Shown here: positions 8,323 to 50,968 of the stretch, piece by piece | How positions within the stretch are numbered: the stretch's first letter is position 1 | Layout: each line of letters begins with the position of its first letter | From: an uncultured Candidatus Saccharibacteria bacterium | GTDB taxonomy: Bacteria; Patescibacteriota; Minisyncoccia; Phycocordibacterales; UBA2100 | Reading direction: 5' to 3' | Assembly (NCBI GenBank): GCA_964545165.1 | Contig: CAZJEQ010000004.1 | Location: 17,716 to 81,715 of the forward strand | Length of the DNA: 64,000 bases | The notes under the pieces: model-generated | Told to the model about the DNA's origin: nothing | The model's database searches: none | Seen by the model: the letters and a program-made list of their open reading frames with translations, nothing else | Position numbers and translations under genes: made by a program

Positions 8323-9534
8323 ATGGCTGTCTTCAACTACACCGCGCTCGACCAGGAGGGCAACAAGCGCGAAGGATCGATCGATGCGATCAACATGGAC
8401 GTGGCCATCGCGGCGCTGCAACGTCGCGGCCTTATCATTTCGCAGATAGACGAGCCCGCAGAAAAGCGCTCAGGACTCTCCAAGCAGATCACTTTTTTCA
8501 GCGGCGTGAAGAACGCCGATGTGGTGATGCTCTCGCGTCAAATCACCACACTCTTCGAGGCGCAGGTCTCAGCGTTGCGCGCCTTCCGCCTCCTCGCTTC
8601 TGAGGCACGCACGCCTGTTCTGGGCGACAAGCTCACCGAAATCGCCAACGACATTCAGAGTGGCTCGCCGATTTCGGTCGCGCTCGGCAAGCAGCCGGAC
8701 ATGTTTAGTCCCTTCTACGTCAACATGGTCCGTGCAGGCGAAGAGTCAGGCAAGCTCGATGAAACCTTTGCCTTCCTGGCCGATTATCTTGATCGCAACT
8801 ACGAAATCACCCAGAAGGCTAAGAATGCTTTGATCTATCCGGCCTTTATCTTCTCGACATTTCTGGTCGTGATGGGCCTCATGCTCACCTTTATTATTCC
8901 AAATCTCGCGGAAATGCTTCAGGGAACAGGGCAGGCAATTCCGATCTACACAAGAATCGTCATCGGACTCTCTGACTTTATTCGTCATTACATACTGCTC
9001 ATTTTGATTGCACTCGTCGGTGGCGGCGTCTTCTTCTACCGCTACGGCAAGACCGCCCCAGGACGTGCGATGCTCTCGCGTGCACGACTCGAGACACCGG
9101 TCATTGGCGGCATCTACCAGAAGATCTTTCTCTCGCGCATCGCCGACAACCTCTCCACCATGCTCAAGAGCGGTATTCAGGTATTGCGTGGCATTGAAAT
9201 CACTGCCACGGTCGTGGAGGATGCGACATACGAACGCATTTTGAAGAGTGCCGCAGAGGACGTGAAGGCGGGCCTACCCGTTTCCGAGGCGCTCCGAAAA
9301 TACCCGGAAATGCCCGGTATTGTCGTCGCGATGATGAAAATCGGTGAAGAGACCGGCAACATGGGAGAGATTCTCGAGACCATGGCGCGCTTTTACCGTC
9401 GCGAAGTAAATAACGCCGTCGACACGATGGTGGATCTCATCGAGCCGGTGATGATCGTCGCGCTTGCTGTCGGCGTCGCCACGCTGCTCGCATCGGTTTT
9501 GGTGCCAATCTACAACATCGCCTCCGGCTTTTGA
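8323..9534 (+). CDS. pilC: type IV pilus platform protein PilC (GspF family)
   Basis: Two T2SS-F domains; three TM helices. Confidence 0.9.
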   Translation: MAVFNYTALDQEGNKREGSIDAINMDVAIAALQRRGLIISQIDEPAEKRSGLSKQITFFSGVKNADVVMLSRQITTLFEAQVSALRAFRLLASEARTPVLGDKLTEIANDIQSGSPISVALGKQPDMFSPFYVNMVRAGEESGKLDETFAFLADYLDRNYEITQKAKNALIYPAFIFSTFLVVMGLMLTFIIPNLAEMLQGTGQAIPIYTRIVIGLSDFIRHYILLILIALVGGGVFFYRYGKTAPGRAMLSRARLETPVIGGIYQKIFLSRIADNLSTMLKSGIQVLRGIEITATVVEDATYERILKSAAEDVKAGLPVSEALRKYPEMPGIVVAMMKIGEETGNMGEILETMARFYRREVNNAVDTMVDLIEPVMIVALAVGVATLLASVLVPIYNIASGF

Positions 9535-9658
9535 CCCCGCCCTAGAGGCTCGCCGCACCGCGGGCCGACGAGCGTTGTTATCCACATGATGGGACGCCGG
9601 AAGAGCGTGAAGCGGTACAATGTCGATACTTATAAACTATTTCATTTTGCCCCTATAT

Positions 9659-10192
9659 ATGCGTAATTATTCTGGCCGTCGCGGCTTCACCCTCATTGAA
9701 TTGCTCGTGGTGATCGCCATTATCGGTATCCTCTCGTCGGTCGTACTTGCATCGCTCAACTCCGCCCGCAAAAAGGGTCGTGATGCGCGCCGCGTTGCCG
9801 ATGTGAAACAGCTCCAGCTCGCGCTCGAACTTTACTACGATGCCAATGGTTCATACCCGGCTACGACATCGGTCGCGACACTCGTGACTCCGGGCTACAT
9901 CGCGACGATTCCGACGGATCCGACGAACGGTGCCACCTATATCTACGTTCCGTATGCAGCTTCCGGCTCGACAGCAATCTGCAACGGCTATCACCTCGGT
10001 ACCTCGCTTGAGACCGCTGATCATGTTGGCCTCGACGCAGACTCTGACGTCGCTGCATTCCCATCAGGCCTCGCACTCTGCACGGCCTCGGGCGTTGCTA
10101 CGGGCCTCGGCTCGAGCGACATGAACGGTGTGGATGACAACAAGTGCGCTTCCACCGACGCTGGTGTGACGTGCTACGACGTCCGCTCGTAA
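9659..10192 (+). CDS. pilA: type IV pilin (major pilin candidate)
   Basis: Class III signal peptide: MRNYSGRRG, then FTLIELLVVIAIIGIL with Glu at +5; C-terminal Cys pair. Start set at the internal ATG. Confidence 0.8.
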   Translation: MRNYSGRRGFTLIELLVVIAIIGILSSVVLASLNSARKKGRDARRVADVKQLQLALELYYDANGSYPATTSVATLVTPGYIATIPTDPTNGATYIYVPYAASGSTAICNGYHLGTSLETADHVGLDADSDVAAFPSGLALCTASGVATGLGSSDMNGVDDNKCASTDAGVTCYDVRS

Positions 10193-10206
10193 ACTGATTC
10201 TCAATC

Positions 10207-10238
10207 ACGAAAAAGCGCCCCTCGCGGGGCGCTTTTTC
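10207..10238 (+). terminator. rho-independent terminator after the pilin gene
   Basis: AAAAAGCGCCCC-tcgc-GGGGCGCTTTTT. Confidence 0.6.
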
Positions 10239-10242
10239 GTGT

Positions 10243-10375
10243 GTACACCCAACGTCCCGTCCCTGCGGGGACGTGTCCGGGTGTAACTCAAGGTTGCACC
10301 CCACGTCACACTCCTGCAGGGGTGTGTCCGGGCGTAACTCTTCAAATTCTCTGGTGAGAATTTGAAGGTTATACT
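10243..10375 (+). repeat. structured intergenic repeat, two tandem units (locus A)
   Basis: Consensus CCACGTC-hairpin-TGTCCGGG-nGTAACTC-hairpin(TTCAAATTCTC/GAGAATTTGAA)-GGTTATA(CT); the second unit ends in TATACT 8 nt before the pilD ATG. Related copies at 17395 and 50491. Confidence 0.6.
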
Positions 10376-10383
10376 TGCCTCTA

Positions 10384-11181
10384 ATGCTTTCCGCCCTGGT
10401 ATTCGCATGCTTCGGGCTCATCATCGGGAGCTTTCTCAACGTGGTCATTGTGCGCCGCTCGATTCGATCGCTTGCCGGTCGAAGCGGCTGCCTCTCTTGT
10501 TGTGCGCAGCTGCGGGCAATTGATCTCGTACCGATCGTCTCGTGGCTCGCGCTTCGTGGTCGCTGTCGCTCCTGCGGCAGTGGGATCTCGATGCAGTACC
10601 CGCTTGTCGAGGGAGCGACGGCGCTCGTCTTTGGGATGATCGGCGGTGCAGGCCTCCCGCTCATCTCGAGTGCGCTCGCCTGCGTTATCGGTGCGCTCCT
10701 GATCGCTATTGCTGCATACGACGCACGTCATACCATCATTCCCGATGAGTGGGTGTACAGCGCGGCGCTGCTCGCGCTGGCTTTTGCGCTGAACGAGCAC
10801 GGATACTCATTAGCACTGCTTCTCGCGGGGCCGATTGCGGCGCTCCCGCTCTTTGCATTGTGGCTGGTCTCGCGTGGTCGTTGGATGGGTTTGGGGGATG
10901 CGAAGCTTGCGCTCGCGATGGGGTGGTTGCTGGGCCCCGTGTATGGCATCTATGCGGTCGGAAGTGCGTTTGTGATCGGTGCGATGCTCTCACTTGCGAT
11001 TCTGGTGCCGCTTCCGCACTATGTGCGCGCGCTTAAAAAAGCGGGGATAGTGCGCGCCCACCGTGCGACGTCATATACAATGAAAAGCGAAGTCCCATTC
11101 GGACCGTTTCTGATACTTTCATGCTTCATCGTATGGTTCGCGCTACTCTTCGCTTTACCGCTTCCCGGCGCTTTCTTCTAG
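10384..11181 (+). CDS. pilD: prepilin peptidase PilD (A24 family)
   Basis: Cys-tetrad N-terminal region CxxC..CxxC; multi-TM; catalytic Asp motifs (DARH, GLGDAKL). Track start 10375 is a TTG; the ATG at 10384 is preferred. Confidence 0.85.
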   Translation: MLSALVFACFGLIIGSFLNVVIVRRSIRSLAGRSGCLSCCAQLRAIDLVPIVSWLALRGRCRSCGSGISMQYPLVEGATALVFGMIGGAGLPLISSALACVIGALLIAIAAYDARHTIIPDEWVYSAALLALAFALNEHGYSLALLLAGPIAALPLFALWLVSRGRWMGLGDAKLALAMGWLLGPVYGIYAVGSAFVIGAMLSLAILVPLPHYVRALKKAGIVRAHRATSYTMKSEVPFGPFLILSCFIVWFALLFALPLPGAFF

Positions 11182-11753
11182 TGCGCGAGCGAGGCTTTAC
11201 GTTGATCGAGCTCCTCGTGGTCACGGCTATCATGATCTTGATCAGCGGCGTCGTGTTTGCCAACAGCAACGCGTTCGGCGGCAAAGTGTTGCTCCAGAAT
11301 CTGGCGTACGATTCAGCGCTCACGGTGCGACAGGCGCAAGTGTACGGCATCTCGGTTCAGCGATTTGCTGATGATATTTTCGCCGATGGGTATGGTGTGC
11401 GCTTCACACGCAATACAAACCCGACGGTGCAGGATCAGTTTGTGCTCTTTGCCGATGTGATCGATAAAAATGGTCTGTATGATTGTAGTTCAGCGCTCGC
11501 GTGTGAGCTGGTTGCCGCAAATCTTTTGCGCAGCGGCTACCACATCGCTGATATCTGTATTCCCGCATCGCAGGTAGAGCCGTGTGGGCACAGTACGCTC
11601 GATGTGACATTCCGCCGCCCTGATCCCGATGCGTATATCCGTGCTGACGGTCTCTCAACGTTGTATGAATCCGCGCGTGTCATATTTATCTCACCCCGCA
11701 GCGAGACACAGTCGGTCGTCGTTGAGCAGAATGGTCAAATTTCCGTGCAATAA
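11181..11753 (+). CDS. pseudopilin / minor pilin
   Basis: GTG at 11181 overlaps the pilD stop and gives a canonical short leader MRERG|FTLIELLVV; alternative ATG at 11133 gives a 21-aa leader. Confidence 0.6.
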   Translation: MRERGFTLIELLVVTAIMILISGVVFANSNAFGGKVLLQNLAYDSALTVRQAQVYGISVQRFADDIFADGYGVRFTRNTNPTVQDQFVLFADVIDKNGLYDCSSALACELVAANLLRSGYHIADICIPASQVEPCGHSTLDVTFRRPDPDAYIRADGLSTLYESARVIFISPRSETQSVVVEQNGQISVQ

Positions 11754-11756
11754 GCT

Positions 11757-12404
11757 ATGAAAAAAATTGAACGCTATATGAAAGTTTTCGCCGGCCCGTG
11801 GTCGGGCCGGCATGAACCGCCTCCTATCGGCAGAAGCCGACAGTCGGCCACTACGGGCGCGCCTTCGCGCGGGTTCACCCTCGTCGAGATGATCGTTGCT
11901 GTCGGCCTCTTTGCTGTCGTGATGCTCGTCTCCATCTCCGCGCTTCTGTCGCTTATCGATGCCAATAGAAAGGCGCAGGCGCTTCAGTCGGTTATGAACA
12001 ATCTCAACATCGCCATCGACGGTATGGTGCGCTCCATACGAGAGGGGAGCAGTTATCGATGTGGTGGGCAGAATCCCGGCAACCCTGATTGTCCGGAGAC
12101 CCCCGGCACGGTCTTCTACTTCCGACCAAGCTGTGCGGATTCGTGCAGCGACTGGATCTACAGTTTCCACGACGGCCGCCTCTGGCGCTCCACCACGGGA
12201 TTTAGCTCAGGGGAGCTTCCGCTCACCGCACCGGAAGTAACCATCGAATCGGTCTCGATGTACGTGATTGGTGCGACGCGCGGTGACAATATTCAACCGA
12301 AGGTCGTCATCATTATCAAAGGCTCTGCAGGTGCGGCGCGGACAAATGCGCGCACGACCTTCCACATTCAGTCGACTGCCGTGCAACGCGTGCTTGATAT
12401 TTAA
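11757..12404 (+). CDS. pseudopilin / minor pilin with a long leader
   Basis: ...SRG|FTLVEMIVAVGLFAVV class III motif preceded by a 38-46-aa leader; Cys-rich C-terminal domain; alternative start at 11778. Confidence 0.65.
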   Translation: MKKIERYMKVFAGPWSGRHEPPPIGRSRQSATTGAPSRGFTLVEMIVAVGLFAVVMLVSISALLSLIDANRKAQALQSVMNNLNIAIDGMVRSIREGSSYRCGGQNPGNPDCPETPGTVFYFRPSCADSCSDWIYSFHDGRLWRSTTGFSSGELPLTAPEVTIESVSMYVIGATRGDNIQPKVVIIIKGSAGAARTNARTTFHIQSTAVQRVLDI

Positions 12405-12406
12405 TA

Positions 12407-13113
12407 TGAAATTTAATATCCCTAAGGTTTTCGTCGGTTCAATTGCGTCGTCGGAACGTGCTCGTTCCGACGTGAATCTTCTCCCATCGGCCATGAGCCG
12501 ACAGTCGAACCGCTTGCAGCGGCGCCTCGCGGCGGATTCAGGCTTCACACTCATCGAAACGCTTGTGGCGATTTCACTTTTGACCGTTGCGATTGTTGCG
12601 CCGATGTCGCTCGTTACGCAATCACTCTCATCAGCGTTTTATGCGCGTGATCAGGTGACCGCATACAATCTTGCGCAGGAAGGTATCGAAGCACTTCGTG
12701 CGGTCCGTGACGGCAATATTCTCGCCAACGCGCTGGAAAGTGCTGGTCGCGGACTTCTCGATGGGATTCCGATAGGCAGTGCCTTCACCATCGATGCACG
12801 CGAATCGACGGCGGAAGACGCGATTGAAGTCTGCGCGGCGAATCCGTGCCCTCCACTGCAGACAGACGGCACGCTCTACGGATATGCAGCAGGTGATCGG
12901 AGTGTCGCTAATCGTGACCCCAATTGGGTCAATACGAACTTCACACGCACGCTCATTGCTGCATACGTTGGCCCTACTGATGTGAATAGTGGACACGATG
13001 CTATACGCATCTCGGTCACGGTCTCGTGGCGCACCGCAAACAATCAGACTCGCTCGTTTACGATTTATGAAAACATGTACCGTTGGGTAGAGGATGGTGC
13101 GGCTGCTGAATAG
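12407..13113 (+). CDS. pseudopilin / minor pilin with a long leader
   Basis: ...DSG|FTLIETLVAISLL motif; the leader is homologous to the previous gene (KVFxG...SRQS); alternative internal ATG gives a 17-aa leader. Confidence 0.65.
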
Positions 13114-13115
13114 CT

Positions 13116-13637
13116 ATGAAAAAGATCTCACAATCACAACGCGGCTTCACGCTCCTGATGGCGGCACTCGTCGCCTCTATCGTGCTCATGCTGGGCTCAT
13201 CGATTTTCTCGATTGCGCAGAAGCAAATCATTCTCTCATCCATCGGGCGTGATTCGCAGTTTGCGTTCTATGCAGCAGATACTGCAGCTGAGTGTGCGCT
13301 CTATCACGATATTCGCTTGCAGGCATTTGGTACGGCGGAAGATCCGACAGTGGCGACGGTGACGTGCGATAAGGCAGCCGATGGTTCGGACCTGACTGCA
13401 GAAACGACCATTATTGATGGCGACACTGCTGCGACCTCAACTTTTTTGATGGAATTATTCGAGCGGAACGTCTTTACGAACGAAGCAGCGGCGAATACGA
13501 ATTGTGTCGAGGTCACTGTCGCCAAGAATCCCAGTACACCCTTTACGGTTATTCACGCAGACGGGTATTCGACACCGTGTGCGGGGATTACCACCAGCGC
13601 GAGAGCCCTACAGAGGTCTATTGAACTGAGATACTAG
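13116..13637 (+). CDS. pseudopilin-like protein (PilX-like, non-canonical FTLLMAAL)
   Basis: MKKISQSQRG|FTLLMAALVASIVL; no Glu at +5; last gene of the pilus cluster. Confidence 0.6.
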   Translation: MKKISQSQRGFTLLMAALVASIVLMLGSSIFSIAQKQIILSSIGRDSQFAFYAADTAAECALYHDIRLQAFGTAEDPTVATVTCDKAADGSDLTAETTIIDGDTAATSTFLMELFERNVFTNEAAANTNCVEVTVAKNPSTPFTVIHADGYSTPCAGITTSARALQRSIELRY

Positions 13638-13663
13638 ACGGCTGTTTTTTCCTGCCACTCTAG

Positions 13664-15975
<2,312 letters not shown>

Positions 15976-17394: not shown

Positions 17395-17545
17395 GCCCCA
17401 CGTCGTATTGCTGCACGAATACGTCCGGGCATAACTCCTGAGATTCTCTGGTGAGCATCCGGGTGACACCCCACGTCACATTCCTGCGGGAATGTGTCCG
17501 GGAGTAACTCTTCAAATTCTCTACTGAGAATTTGAAGGTTATAAT
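17395..17545 (+). repeat. structured intergenic repeat, two tandem units (locus B)
   Basis: Same family as 10243 and 50491. Unit 2 is CCACGTCACATTCCTGCGGGAATGTGTCCGGGAGTAACTCTTCAAATTCTCtactGAGAATTTGAAGGTTATAAT; the TATAAT at 17540-45 lies 6 nt before the ATG at 17552. Confidence 0.6.
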
Positions 17546-38179: not shown

Positions 38180-38208
38180 CGCGTCATGCTAGCATCGAAG
38201 AGACGCCC

Positions 38209-38475
38209 ATGCATTACGTATATATATTGAAGTGTGCGGATAGCACCTTCTACATCGGCTATACCAACAATATTGCGAAGCGTCTCGCGATGCACAATGG
38301 CGGCAAAGCGGGAGCGAAGTACACGAGAGCGCGTCGTCCTGTCACACTTCTCTATAAACAAGGATTTCGGACGCTCTCAAAGGCACTCAAGCGGGAATAT
38401 GAAATGAAACAATGGTCCCGCGCAGAGAAATTGGCTTTTTTGCGAAAGAAACGCCAACTCTTGCAATCTTCATGA
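38209..38475 (+). CDS. GIY-YIG nuclease family protein (UPF0213 / YhbQ-like)
   Basis: YVYILKC...FYIGYTNN..RL..HN GIY-YIG motif. Track start is a TTG; internal ATG used. Confidence 0.7.
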   Translation: MHYVYILKCADSTFYIGYTNNIAKRLAMHNGGKAGAKYTRARRPVTLLYKQGFRTLSKALKREYEMKQWSRAEKLAFLRKKRQLLQSS

Positions 38476-50422: not shown

Positions 50423-50490
50423 GAGAGCTCTATATCGAGCGCGGGACCCGATTGGTCACGCGCTCGAACTGCATAAGGGCAATTTGATAT

Positions 50491-50566
50491 GCTCCACGTC
50501 ACATCTCTACAGAGATGTGTCCGGGCATAACTCCTGAGATTCCCTGCTGAGAATCTCAGGGTTACA
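50491..50566 (+). repeat. structured intergenic repeat (locus C)
   Basis: CCACGTCACATCTCTacagAGAGATGTGTCCGGGCATAACTCCTGAGATTCcctgctgaGAATCTCAGGGTTACA, then ATG; both stems are complementary but differ in sequence from the loci A and B copies. Confidence 0.6.
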
Positions 50567-50968
50567 ATGACAAGTATGAAAAAGCCACTACCCGAAAACG
50601 AAGAGGGATTTAAGGAGATGCTTACGCCGGAAGAATATAAAGTGCTGCGTGAGAAGGGGACGGAAGCGCCATTTAGCGGCGAATATGTCCACGAAAAGGC
50701 CGACGGCACCTACGAGTGTAAGGTCTGCGGTAATCCGCTTTTTGATTCGACCTCCAAATTTGATAGTGGCACGGGCTGGCCGTCATTTGATTCTGCGCTC
50801 CCCGGCGCGGTCGAGACGCACGCTGATACCGAGCACGGTATGGTGCGCACCGAAATCACCTGCGCGCGCTGTGGCTCCCACCTCGGTCACGTCTTCGACG
50901 ACGGCCCCACTGCTACAGGTAAGAGGTACTGTATAAACTCGGTTTGTCTTGATTTAGAAGAGAAGTAG
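50567..50968 (+). CDS. msrB: peptide methionine sulfoxide reductase MsrB
   Basis: CxxC..CxxC zinc ligands; GWPSF and [10 protein letters not shown] catalytic motif. Confidence 0.85.

Follow-up and report, generated by a model that had tools for sequence, protein, structure and literature searches.

The window analyzed here is a 64,000-nucleotide (64-kb) stretch of contig CAZJEQ010000004.1 from a member of the candidate phyla radiation (CPR), a group of ultra-small bacteria; its best protein matches lie in Candidatus Kaiserbacteria and Paceibacterota. It carries a type IV pilus operon in which two adjacent minor-pilin genes, both on the forward strand, begin with long leader sequences, and in both genes a structured element of ~95 nucleotides occupies nearly the whole leader. 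Gene A (11757-12404) is GspJ/PilW-like and gene B (12406-13113) is PilV/GspI-like; each encodes the class III cleavage motif G↓F-T-L-[IV]-E (the arrow marks the cleavage site) followed by a hydrophobic helix, recognized by Pfam N_methyl and TIGR02532 at residues 37-59 of A and 44-65 of B. The leader-coding part of A spans 11757-11873 (+; 39 codons, MKKIERYMKVFAGPWSGRHEPPPIGRSRQSATTGAPSRG) and is followed by the mature protein FTLVEMIVAVG... (11874-12404, +); that of B spans 12406-12543 (+; 46 codons, MKFNIPKVFVGSIASSERARSDVNLLPSAMSRQSNRLQRRLAADSG), followed by the mature protein FTLIETLVAISL... (12544-13113, +). The leader of A thus comprises 39 residues to G↓FTLVE, or 32 if the second ATG, at 11778, is used, and that of B comprises 46 residues to G↓FTLIE, or 17 if an internal ATG at 12493 is used. 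An earlier note on this DNA had reported the cleavage motif of the two genes, with which the Pfam match agrees, and had set the start of gene B at 12407, one base off the actual start at 12406. The stretch is 100% identical over 2117 nucleotides to a separate public assembly (locus L061), which argues against an assembly artefact.

As that note described, each leader contains a perfect palindrome (11790-11811 in A and 12449-12472 in B, verified by reading and by script), a K-V-F-x-G start and an SRQS segment, whose nucleotides, AGCCGACAGTCG, occur exactly twice in the region (11835-11846 and 12496-12507). These features are not separate, nor is the structure just a hairpin: both palindromes and the shared leader segments are pieces of one ~95-nucleotide element, consisting of a 5′ hairpin (HP1) and then a perfect four-way junction of helices P1 to P4. 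The K-V-F-x-G start corresponds to the T-rich 5′ flank, the palindrome to HP1 and the SRQS 12-mer to the 3′ strand of P2. Copy B (12447-12544), of the main subfamily, was delineated by alignment, pair counts, RNAalifold, RNAfold and cmsearch (106 bits); its HP1 is CGTCGGAACG-TGCT-CGTTCCGACG (12449-12458/12463-12472), followed by P1 (12473-12478/12535-12540), P2 (12479-12481/12507-12509 and 12484-12492/12496-12504), P3 (12510-12514/12518-12522) and P4 (12523-12526/12531-12534). The codons GGC TTC ACA, encoding G↓F-T, come directly after it. Copy A (11787-11881; cmsearch 63.8 bits, E 2.7e-11), of a variant subfamily, has the HP1 GCCGGCCCG-TGGT-CGGGCCGGC (11790-11798/11803-11811), a P1 that pairs TGAACC (11813-11818) with GGTTCA (11872-11877) and overlaps the Gly-1/Phe+1 codons, a P2 base at 11819-11821/11846-11848, a P4 at 11858-11862/11867-11871 and a degenerate P3. 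The 3′ end of the element, GGGTTCACC, is the same as the usual Gly-Phe-Thr codons of these pilins, and in gene A it serves as those codons itself. In each of the adjacent genes the copy is bounded by the start codon on one side and the G↓F-T-L codons on the other, and the two point the same way; given their different subfamilies, they look like two separate acquisitions at an equal relative position. Among the closest members to copy A are those that L005 and L016 carry in their pilin-to-PilD spacers, as well as another variant copy in L038.

The fold is strongly supported by covariation. Main-type copies align without gaps over 98 columns, and pairs were counted over 39 distinct copies, with 500 shuffles and slid pairings as controls. 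The consensus comprises HP1, a hairpin of 10 bp (9-10 bp), and directly after it four helices that meet without unpaired junction bases: P1 reads TGAAYC/GRTTCA, P2 is the long arm, and P3 and P4 close the junction. Over the 39 copies, pairing holds in 98.2% of cells, and both sides have changed at 13 pairs, a number that none of the 500 shuffles reaches and for which the slid controls give 1-2. RNAalifold independently yields the same hairpin and four-way junction. The earlier suggestion of a nucleic-acid element in the 5′ coding region, with its structure kept while its sequence diverges, is supported by these compensatory changes. A covariance model whose seed left copy A out recovered exactly two places in the 64 kb, namely copy B at 106 bits and copy A, over its full length, at 63.8 bits (E 3e-11); nothing else in the window scored above 20 bits. 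Further divergent copies in fetched loci scored 50-76 bits, with HP1, P1, P2 and P4 differing in sequence and keeping their pairing.

The peptide encoded by the element does not appear to be what is conserved. Among seven pilin-linked copies, the 15 variable columns are distributed over codon positions 1/2/3 as 7/4/4, and eight of them fall within the 23 unpaired columns. Moreover, genes A and B are homologous at the DNA level between hairpin and SRQS, yet this part is read in different frames, a one-base indel restoring the register. Variation without third-position bias and concentrated in loops, together with the frame difference, indicates that constraint on the element acts on the nucleic acid and that the peptide is a by-product.

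Searches for a known counterpart were negative. Rfam 15 gave nothing credible up to E = 10 over 11650-12650 or an intergenic copy, scans of 20 loci yielded no hit at the element, and a scan of the window at gathering score returned tRNAs only. Mimicry of tRNA or tmRNA was rejected, since ARAGORN calls nothing at the element, as was an intrinsic terminator: no T run follows either hairpin, the terminator scan calls neither, and a promoter and terminator scan of 9400-13800 found nothing at the elements. The palindromes exceed what chance would give: Markov shuffles lead one to expect 2.3 perfect hairpins of 9 bp or more, whereas the window holds ~20 distinct ones, most of the others being terminators. 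Searches of phage, plasmid and IMG/VR sequences with the element gave no match, and literature searches on structured RNA motifs in Patescibacteria and on CPR minor-pilin leaders brought up no description of it.

The element is dispersed well beyond pilin genes. A degenerate pattern built on its least structured core, CTCCYATCGGC N2-4 RGCCGACAGTCG, matched 13 loci in ~7 CPR genomes and 38 metagenome loci, with hosts of the Kaiserbacteria/Paceibacteria type. Of 42 distinct copies, 10 are linked to pilin leaders and ~30, about three quarters, are intergenic; they occupy the spacers on either side of the major pilin gene (towards PilC and towards PilD), directly follow GroEL or GatA, lie close to RecG and YebC, or are found at other sites. 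Intergenic copies occur in both orientations, at times in tandem with degenerate or variant copies; even loci of one type can differ in orientation (L019 and L003 versus L010, L016, L027 and L033). Two to three exact-pattern copies lie on different contigs of single metagenome-assembled genomes (JBBUAA01, MFLH01, CALRHH01, CAMTYD01 and JACRFK01). In the orientation in which the strand carrying the better structure (below) is co-directional with the upstream gene, the element starts between -28 and +10 nucleotides of that gene's stop codon (L016, L033, L011, L043, L018, L022, L013, L050 and L047). In L016, the TGA of the TGAACC end of the element is itself the stop codon of PilC (...ASSF, stop).

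The fold is not equally well preserved on the two strands. Non-Watson-Crick pairs are mostly C·A on the pilin-sense strand, and hence nearly all G·U on the opposite one; scored over one common set of 37 pairs, the antisense strand has 99.4% of its cells paired and the sense strand 95.2%. When read on the antisense strand, P2 forms an uninterrupted helix that includes an invariant G·U, the internal loop is a tandem GA/GA, and the loop on P4 is GCGA or GUGA, of the GNRA type. Predicted folding is better for the antisense strand in 60 of 61 copies (means -55.4 vs -48.8 kcal/mol); a decaying copy in L063 shows the opposite preference. For copy A, RNAfold gives the same fold at -60.5 kcal/mol (z -5.1) antisense and -51 kcal/mol (z -3.3) sense, and z-scores for copies A and B are -5.1 and -5.1 antisense versus -3.3 and -2.1 sense. 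Selection on the fold, be it at the level of RNA or of single-stranded DNA, acts on the strand complementary to the pilin mRNA.

Comparison with relatives places the insertions among recent changes. Searches found 898 homologues of A and 1220 of B; these conserve the mature part, whereas their leaders vary. Among the top 120 hits per search, a cleavage motif was recognizable in 113 for A and 119 for B; leaders of at most 12 residues were found in 45 and 58 of these, respectively (40-49%), the range being 3 to ~69 residues. Called leaders longer than 25 residues make up 27% of motif-bearing hits, and many look like translated palindromes. Orthologues of A mostly have short leaders, e.g., MRRSPQAG↓FTLVE, with P0036 carrying a leader that resembles that of A in the window. 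About ten others read ..SSERARSDVNLLPSAAGRQSNRLGRRLTADSG↓FTLVE, nearly the leader of gene B in the window; a leader more conserved than its protein and present on different genes raised the suspicion of a DNA element, which the nucleotide sequences of these loci confirmed. In L058, whose gene A is 88% identical, the leaders of 17 and 8 residues (MHTQSSTQHRIRAHERG and MKYTSHRG) contain no element, and in L059 (91%) an unrelated element of 7-nucleotide repeats (…CCATACC…) occupies both the A and B leaders. L063 (81%) has kept a decaying B copy, its A copy being reduced to a stump (VFSGPY..AASRG); gene B of L060 holds a scrambled, degenerate remnant, and L062 and L064 have kept the B copy. According to the earlier note, its reading would be refuted if orthologues kept the protein leaders but had no palindromes, a case that does not apply, as orthologues without the palindromes lack the whole leader. 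Since the closest relatives show a short leader, a remnant or another repeat, the long-leader insertion is a derived state, and the long leaders are recent, unstable insertions.

Other insertions were seen at this position. The 7-nucleotide tandem repeats, CCATACC/CCATACG, are translated as HTPYxIRHT and face an inverted copy (GTATGGAG...); they occur in L059 (2551-2660 and 3177-3290) and in the L005 genes at 2323, 3704 and 4329, that is, in two or three of one genome's four minor-pilin leaders, and here too the mismatches of the sense strand, being A·C, hint at pairing on the other strand. A third recurrent type of long leader, ..SSLKLVA....LPATSYKLQAG↓F, is found in B orthologues (P0126, P0129, P0132, P0143, P0144, P0154, P0181, P0199, P0227, P0229 and P0235) and looks like a translated long inverted repeat. 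In L001 (3639-4487), the B orthologue is called with an entire GIY-YIG nuclease domain joined in frame ahead of its G↓FTLIE, forming a “leader” of ~95 residues, or of 19 if an internal Met is used; this locus type, from Kaiserbacteria RIFCSPHIGHO2_01_FULL_54, is also represented by L002, L008, L050 and L055. A distant GIY-YIG homologue lies in the window at 38203-38412. A link between element and GIY-YIG was rejected, as the fusion occurs in one genome only and no GIY-YIG gene lies near other copies; the likeness of the leader to a GIY-YIG motif (NxLxxRL) was judged coincidental. Finally, alanine replaces glycine at cleavage position -1 (..RA↓FTLIE) in L060 (3573-3680) and in several B orthologues (P0129, P0130, P0143, P0144, P0181, P0207, P0210, P0212, P0223, P0226 and P0234). 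Alanine at this position is unusual among prepilin peptidase substrates.

The position of the start codons bears on whether the element is translated. The operon lacks intergenic spacers, its pseudopilin ATGs lying 1-4 nucleotides past the preceding stop (4 for A and 1 for B), and no Shine-Dalgarno sequence was found at any gene of the pilus operon; translation most likely begins, therefore, at these stop-adjacent ATGs, for which reinitiation at the coupled ATG would be the natural mechanism. In all pilin-linked copies (10 found by the pattern, a variant in gene A of L003, and those in L062-L064), an ATG overlapping the upstream stop, or at most 4 nucleotides past it, opens a frame that runs through the element without a stop and in register with the pilin, despite indels and differences in upstream length. 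The aligned loci thus show that the reading frame through the element is kept, and we think that the long leaders are made and then cut off. A frameshifted start for A, at ATG 11812 after the hairpin, was considered and rejected: its MNRLLSA resembles the VNLLPSA of B through homology of the element in another frame, and the reading frame closes at a TGA 81 nucleotides on, 5 nucleotides beyond the G-F-T codons.

Taken together, we consider it reasonably probable that the long leaders are copies of a dispersed, structured ~95-nucleotide CPR repeat that is tolerated in frame within the cleaved leader. Under this proposal, a repeat arriving in a spacer-less operon has entered its one dispensable stretch of coding sequence, the cleaved leader, where only in-frame, stop-free insertions would persist. 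Translation from the stop-adjacent ATG would read through the element, giving leaders of 39 and 46 residues, and the prepilin peptidase would remove them, leaving ~100 nucleotides of foreign sequence harmless; the copies in pilin genes would then be passengers, and repeats could build up and turn over fast in leaders. In gene A, the coincidence of the element's 3′ end with the Gly-Phe-Thr codons suggests capture by microhomology through GGGTTCACC.

Several observations weigh against this proposal. No terminal inverted repeats or target-site duplications were found in the aligned flanks of the 42 copies, and no transposase was seen by eye in open reading frame listings around the first 11 non-pilin copies, where no domain or similarity search was made; mobility is thus deduced from distribution only. 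A duplication around GGNTTCA was considered and rejected, since the GGTTCA 8 nucleotides 5′ of the copy B hairpin is absent by other copies. Copy number looks low, at two in the 64-kb window and two to three per genome by the strict pattern, and several intergenic positions recur across genomes (after GatA and in the PilC-to-pilin spacer), a pattern no less expected of a functional element that has been retained than of a selfish one. Pilin-linked copies continue to undergo compensatory changes (L013 in P1, window copy B in P3), and their fold is therefore still under maintenance. Every pilin-linked copy has the same orientation and adjoins the G↓F-T codons, a uniformity that could stem from one ancestral event and its spread through recombination, or from a function at that site. 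The leaders, at 39-46 residues, are also longer than those of well-studied pilins, which reach up to ~30 residues.

The foremost alternative, which we regard as possible but rather unlikely, is that the element functions as a small or antisense RNA made from the strand opposite the pilin genes: intergenic copies would produce the RNA, and leader copies would offer it complementary targets or give rise to a local antisense transcript, coupling minor-pilin expression to the element. It would then constitute a new class of small structured RNA in CPR bacteria (e.g., a ribozyme, protein-binding or guide-like), whose copies in leaders and pilus-operon spacers would make up a sense/antisense circuit regulating the pilus, and the features of its antisense strand (the four-way junction, the GNRA loop, the tandem G·A and the invariant G·U) would reflect a specific molecular function. 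The type IV pilus is the organelle by which these episymbionts attach to hosts and take up DNA. All of the strand evidence given above (the paired cells, the P2, internal-loop and P4 features, and the folding energies and z-scores) speaks for this possibility, as does the prevalence of the element in type IV pilus loci; in addition, about two thirds of intergenic copies have the structural strand co-directional with the flanking genes, often starting from the upstream stop. On the other hand, the surroundings of the copies revealed no conserved promoter or terminator, loci of one type hold the element in either orientation, and the element is gained or lost among close relatives while the pilin genes stay. 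The G·T preference, moreover, equally fits single-stranded DNA.

It is improbable, in our view, that the element is a cis-acting mRNA structure, either throttling or timing minor-pilin translation, as the earlier note proposed, or stabilizing or processing the polycistronic transcript. The sense strand does fold stably as well (-42 to -51 kcal/mol), the element lies 30-40 nucleotides 3′ of the start codon in two adjacent genes, and many orthologues have some hairpin-forming repeat here, which could reflect convergent selection. Nevertheless, departures from Watson-Crick pairing on the mRNA strand are C·A and so are not tolerated wobbles; the fold is kept on the strand opposite the pilin mRNA, which argues against a translational-control hairpin, and ~30 of the 42 copies are intergenic, beside unrelated genes. 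With its mixed neighbors, both orientations and a fold that is better on the opposite strand, the element does not behave as a cis-regulatory mRNA leader. In addition, the closest relatives manage with element-free leaders of 8-17 residues, and the flanking minor pilins of the same operon carry no element.

An equally doubtful alternative takes the elements as untranslated spacers and the long leaders as artefacts of extended open reading frames; translation would start downstream of them, in B at ATG 12493, the start annotated by NCBI, and in A at some non-canonical codon, e.g., ATC 11826. NCBI indeed calls B as a protein of 206 residues from the internal ATG (P0121), which gives a plausible 17-residue leader, MSRQSNRLQRRLAADSG, versus 235 residues in other pipelines, and the consensus element is inherently stop-free in two of three sense frames. 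However, A has no in-frame ATG, GTG or TTG from 11778 to G↓F, and ATG 12493 sits in the variable P2 loop, where every other pilin-linked copy, including those of L062-L064, lacks it and has another codon (TTC, GAA, GCG, GCA, TAT or GGA). The openness and frame kept from the coupled ATG, despite upstream indels, and the starts directly past the preceding stop without Shine-Dalgarno sequences also speak against it. That the palindromes are simply 5′ untranslated region, which the earlier note had raised, is thus unlikely, element-carrying relatives having no in-frame start downstream of the element. The last alternative, a long leader selected as protein, type IVb-like or with its own function, is already largely refuted and very improbable: the leaders do have the basic character of class III leaders, and the peptide SSERARSDVNLLPSA.GRQSNRL.RRL..DSG recurs across genomes, but this recurrence tracks a DNA element also present outside genes, variation shows no third-position bias and falls in loops, A and B read homologous nucleotides in different frames, and the mature N-terminus is the ordinary F-T-L-[IV]-E, with orthologues 81-91% identical that have a short leader, a remnant or an unrelated repeat.

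The surrounding operon comprises PilT (start 7258), PilC (8323), the major pilin (9620) and the prepilin peptidase PilD (10375-11181, +; Pfam A24_N_bact 1.8e-25, Peptidase_A24 6e-12), as seen from Pfam/NCBIfam-type hits and open reading frames. PilD lies directly 5′ of four minor-pilin genes and is the enzyme expected to cut off their leaders. Besides A and B, these are an H-like pseudopilin (start 11181, leader VRERG↓FTLIE) and an X-like pseudopilin (13116-13637, leader MKKISQSQRG↓FTLLM), whose translations confirm the ordinary short leaders reported earlier. The latter reads FTLLM rather than FTL[IV]E, thus lacking Glu5 as in GspK/PilX-type tip subunits, and Pfam and NCBIfam give no match to it. 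LigA and then GatCA follow 3′ of the four pseudopilins, and the order PilT-PilC-pilin-PilD-pseudopilins is also found in L001, L003, L005, L058 and L060.

A second, unrelated repeat family occurs in the window at 10238-10373, 17396-17543 and 50488-50568. It has a hairpin, CTTCAAATTCTC-NNNN-GAGAATTTGAAG, after CACCCCACGTCAC..GTGTCCGGG..TAACTC modules, and ends in GGTTATA(A)T; copies stand directly 5′ of the PilD start (TTG 10375) and of ATG 17552. Because this TATAAT-like end lies only a few bases from the start codon, the family may be a portable promoter for leaderless or near-leaderless mRNAs. It occupies here the pilin-to-PilD spacer and the position after GatA, where other genomes have the four-way-junction element. 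DnaA-box-like motifs (TTATCCACA and TGTGGATAA), perfect or near-perfect and at times three in a row, adjoin several element copies, in the upstream flanks of L010, L027 and L033 and the downstream flanks of L019, L025, L015, L023 and L040. The PilC-to-pilin spacer likewise holds such motifs, along with a GGTRTACAATG -10-like box 5′ of the major pilin gene. They could be promoter or regulator sites rather than an origin.

Among known systems, the Rickettsia palindromic elements, which lie in frame in many open reading frames and are translated with the product (PMC10969869), are the closest parallel. Like these elements of ~100-150 bp (PMC10969869), the CPR element is a short structured repeat dispersed in a reduced genome with in-frame coding copies, and it shares their hallmark of stop-free, in-frame insertion into open reading frames. 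It differs in having no sequence relationship to them, in forming a hairpin and four-way junction instead of a simple palindrome, in its CPR host, in an apparently low copy number and in that all in-gene copies lie in the cleaved leader, not the mature protein. With repetitive extragenic palindromes and their mosaics (REP/BIME) and the small transposable elements with inverted repeats known as MITEs (ERIC, Correia/NEMIS, BOX and RUP), it shares intergenic placement, often directly after stop codons, both orientations, tandem or mosaic arrangements with degenerate copies, and compensatory conservation of the fold. Unlike them, it shows no terminal inverted repeat, target-site duplication or RAYT/IS200-type transposase in the examined DNA, and, compared with MITEs, it is far more conserved across distant genomes than usual, several positions being syntenic.

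Leaders of type IVb pilins span ~13-30 residues, are conserved within families and precede a first mature residue other than Phe. Those of A and B resemble the type IVb leaders of TcpA, BfpA and CofA in being long, basic and placed before a class III cleavage site; in contrast, they measure 39-46 residues, precede Phe and are absent in the closest orthologues, and the repeat also lies outside genes. The resemblance to four-way-junction RNAs such as the hairpin and twister-sister ribozymes (a compact four-helix junction, a GNRA loop, tandem G·A and a conserved G·U) is architectural only, as no catalytic core is recognizable and no Rfam match exists on either strand at E<=10. The novelty lies in the fold and its strand signature, in the host group and in the leader peptide as a niche; a structured repeat carried in frame was already known.

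These findings have consequences for annotation, evolution and RNA biology. Because the repeat sits in the leader, starts for gene B are called inconsistently (206 vs 235 residues for the same gene), as are pilin starts and leader lengths in CPR bacteria. From the perspective of evolution, the cleaved class III leader appears to be a safe harbor for repeats, and even for a GIY-YIG gene, in genomes nearly devoid of spacers, extending to the signal peptide the idea of selfish DNA in coding genes that was developed for Rickettsia. For RNA biology, the element adds an uncatalogued, strongly covarying fold of ~95 nucleotides with a clear strand preference, which is conserved across CPR lineages and can now be searched for.

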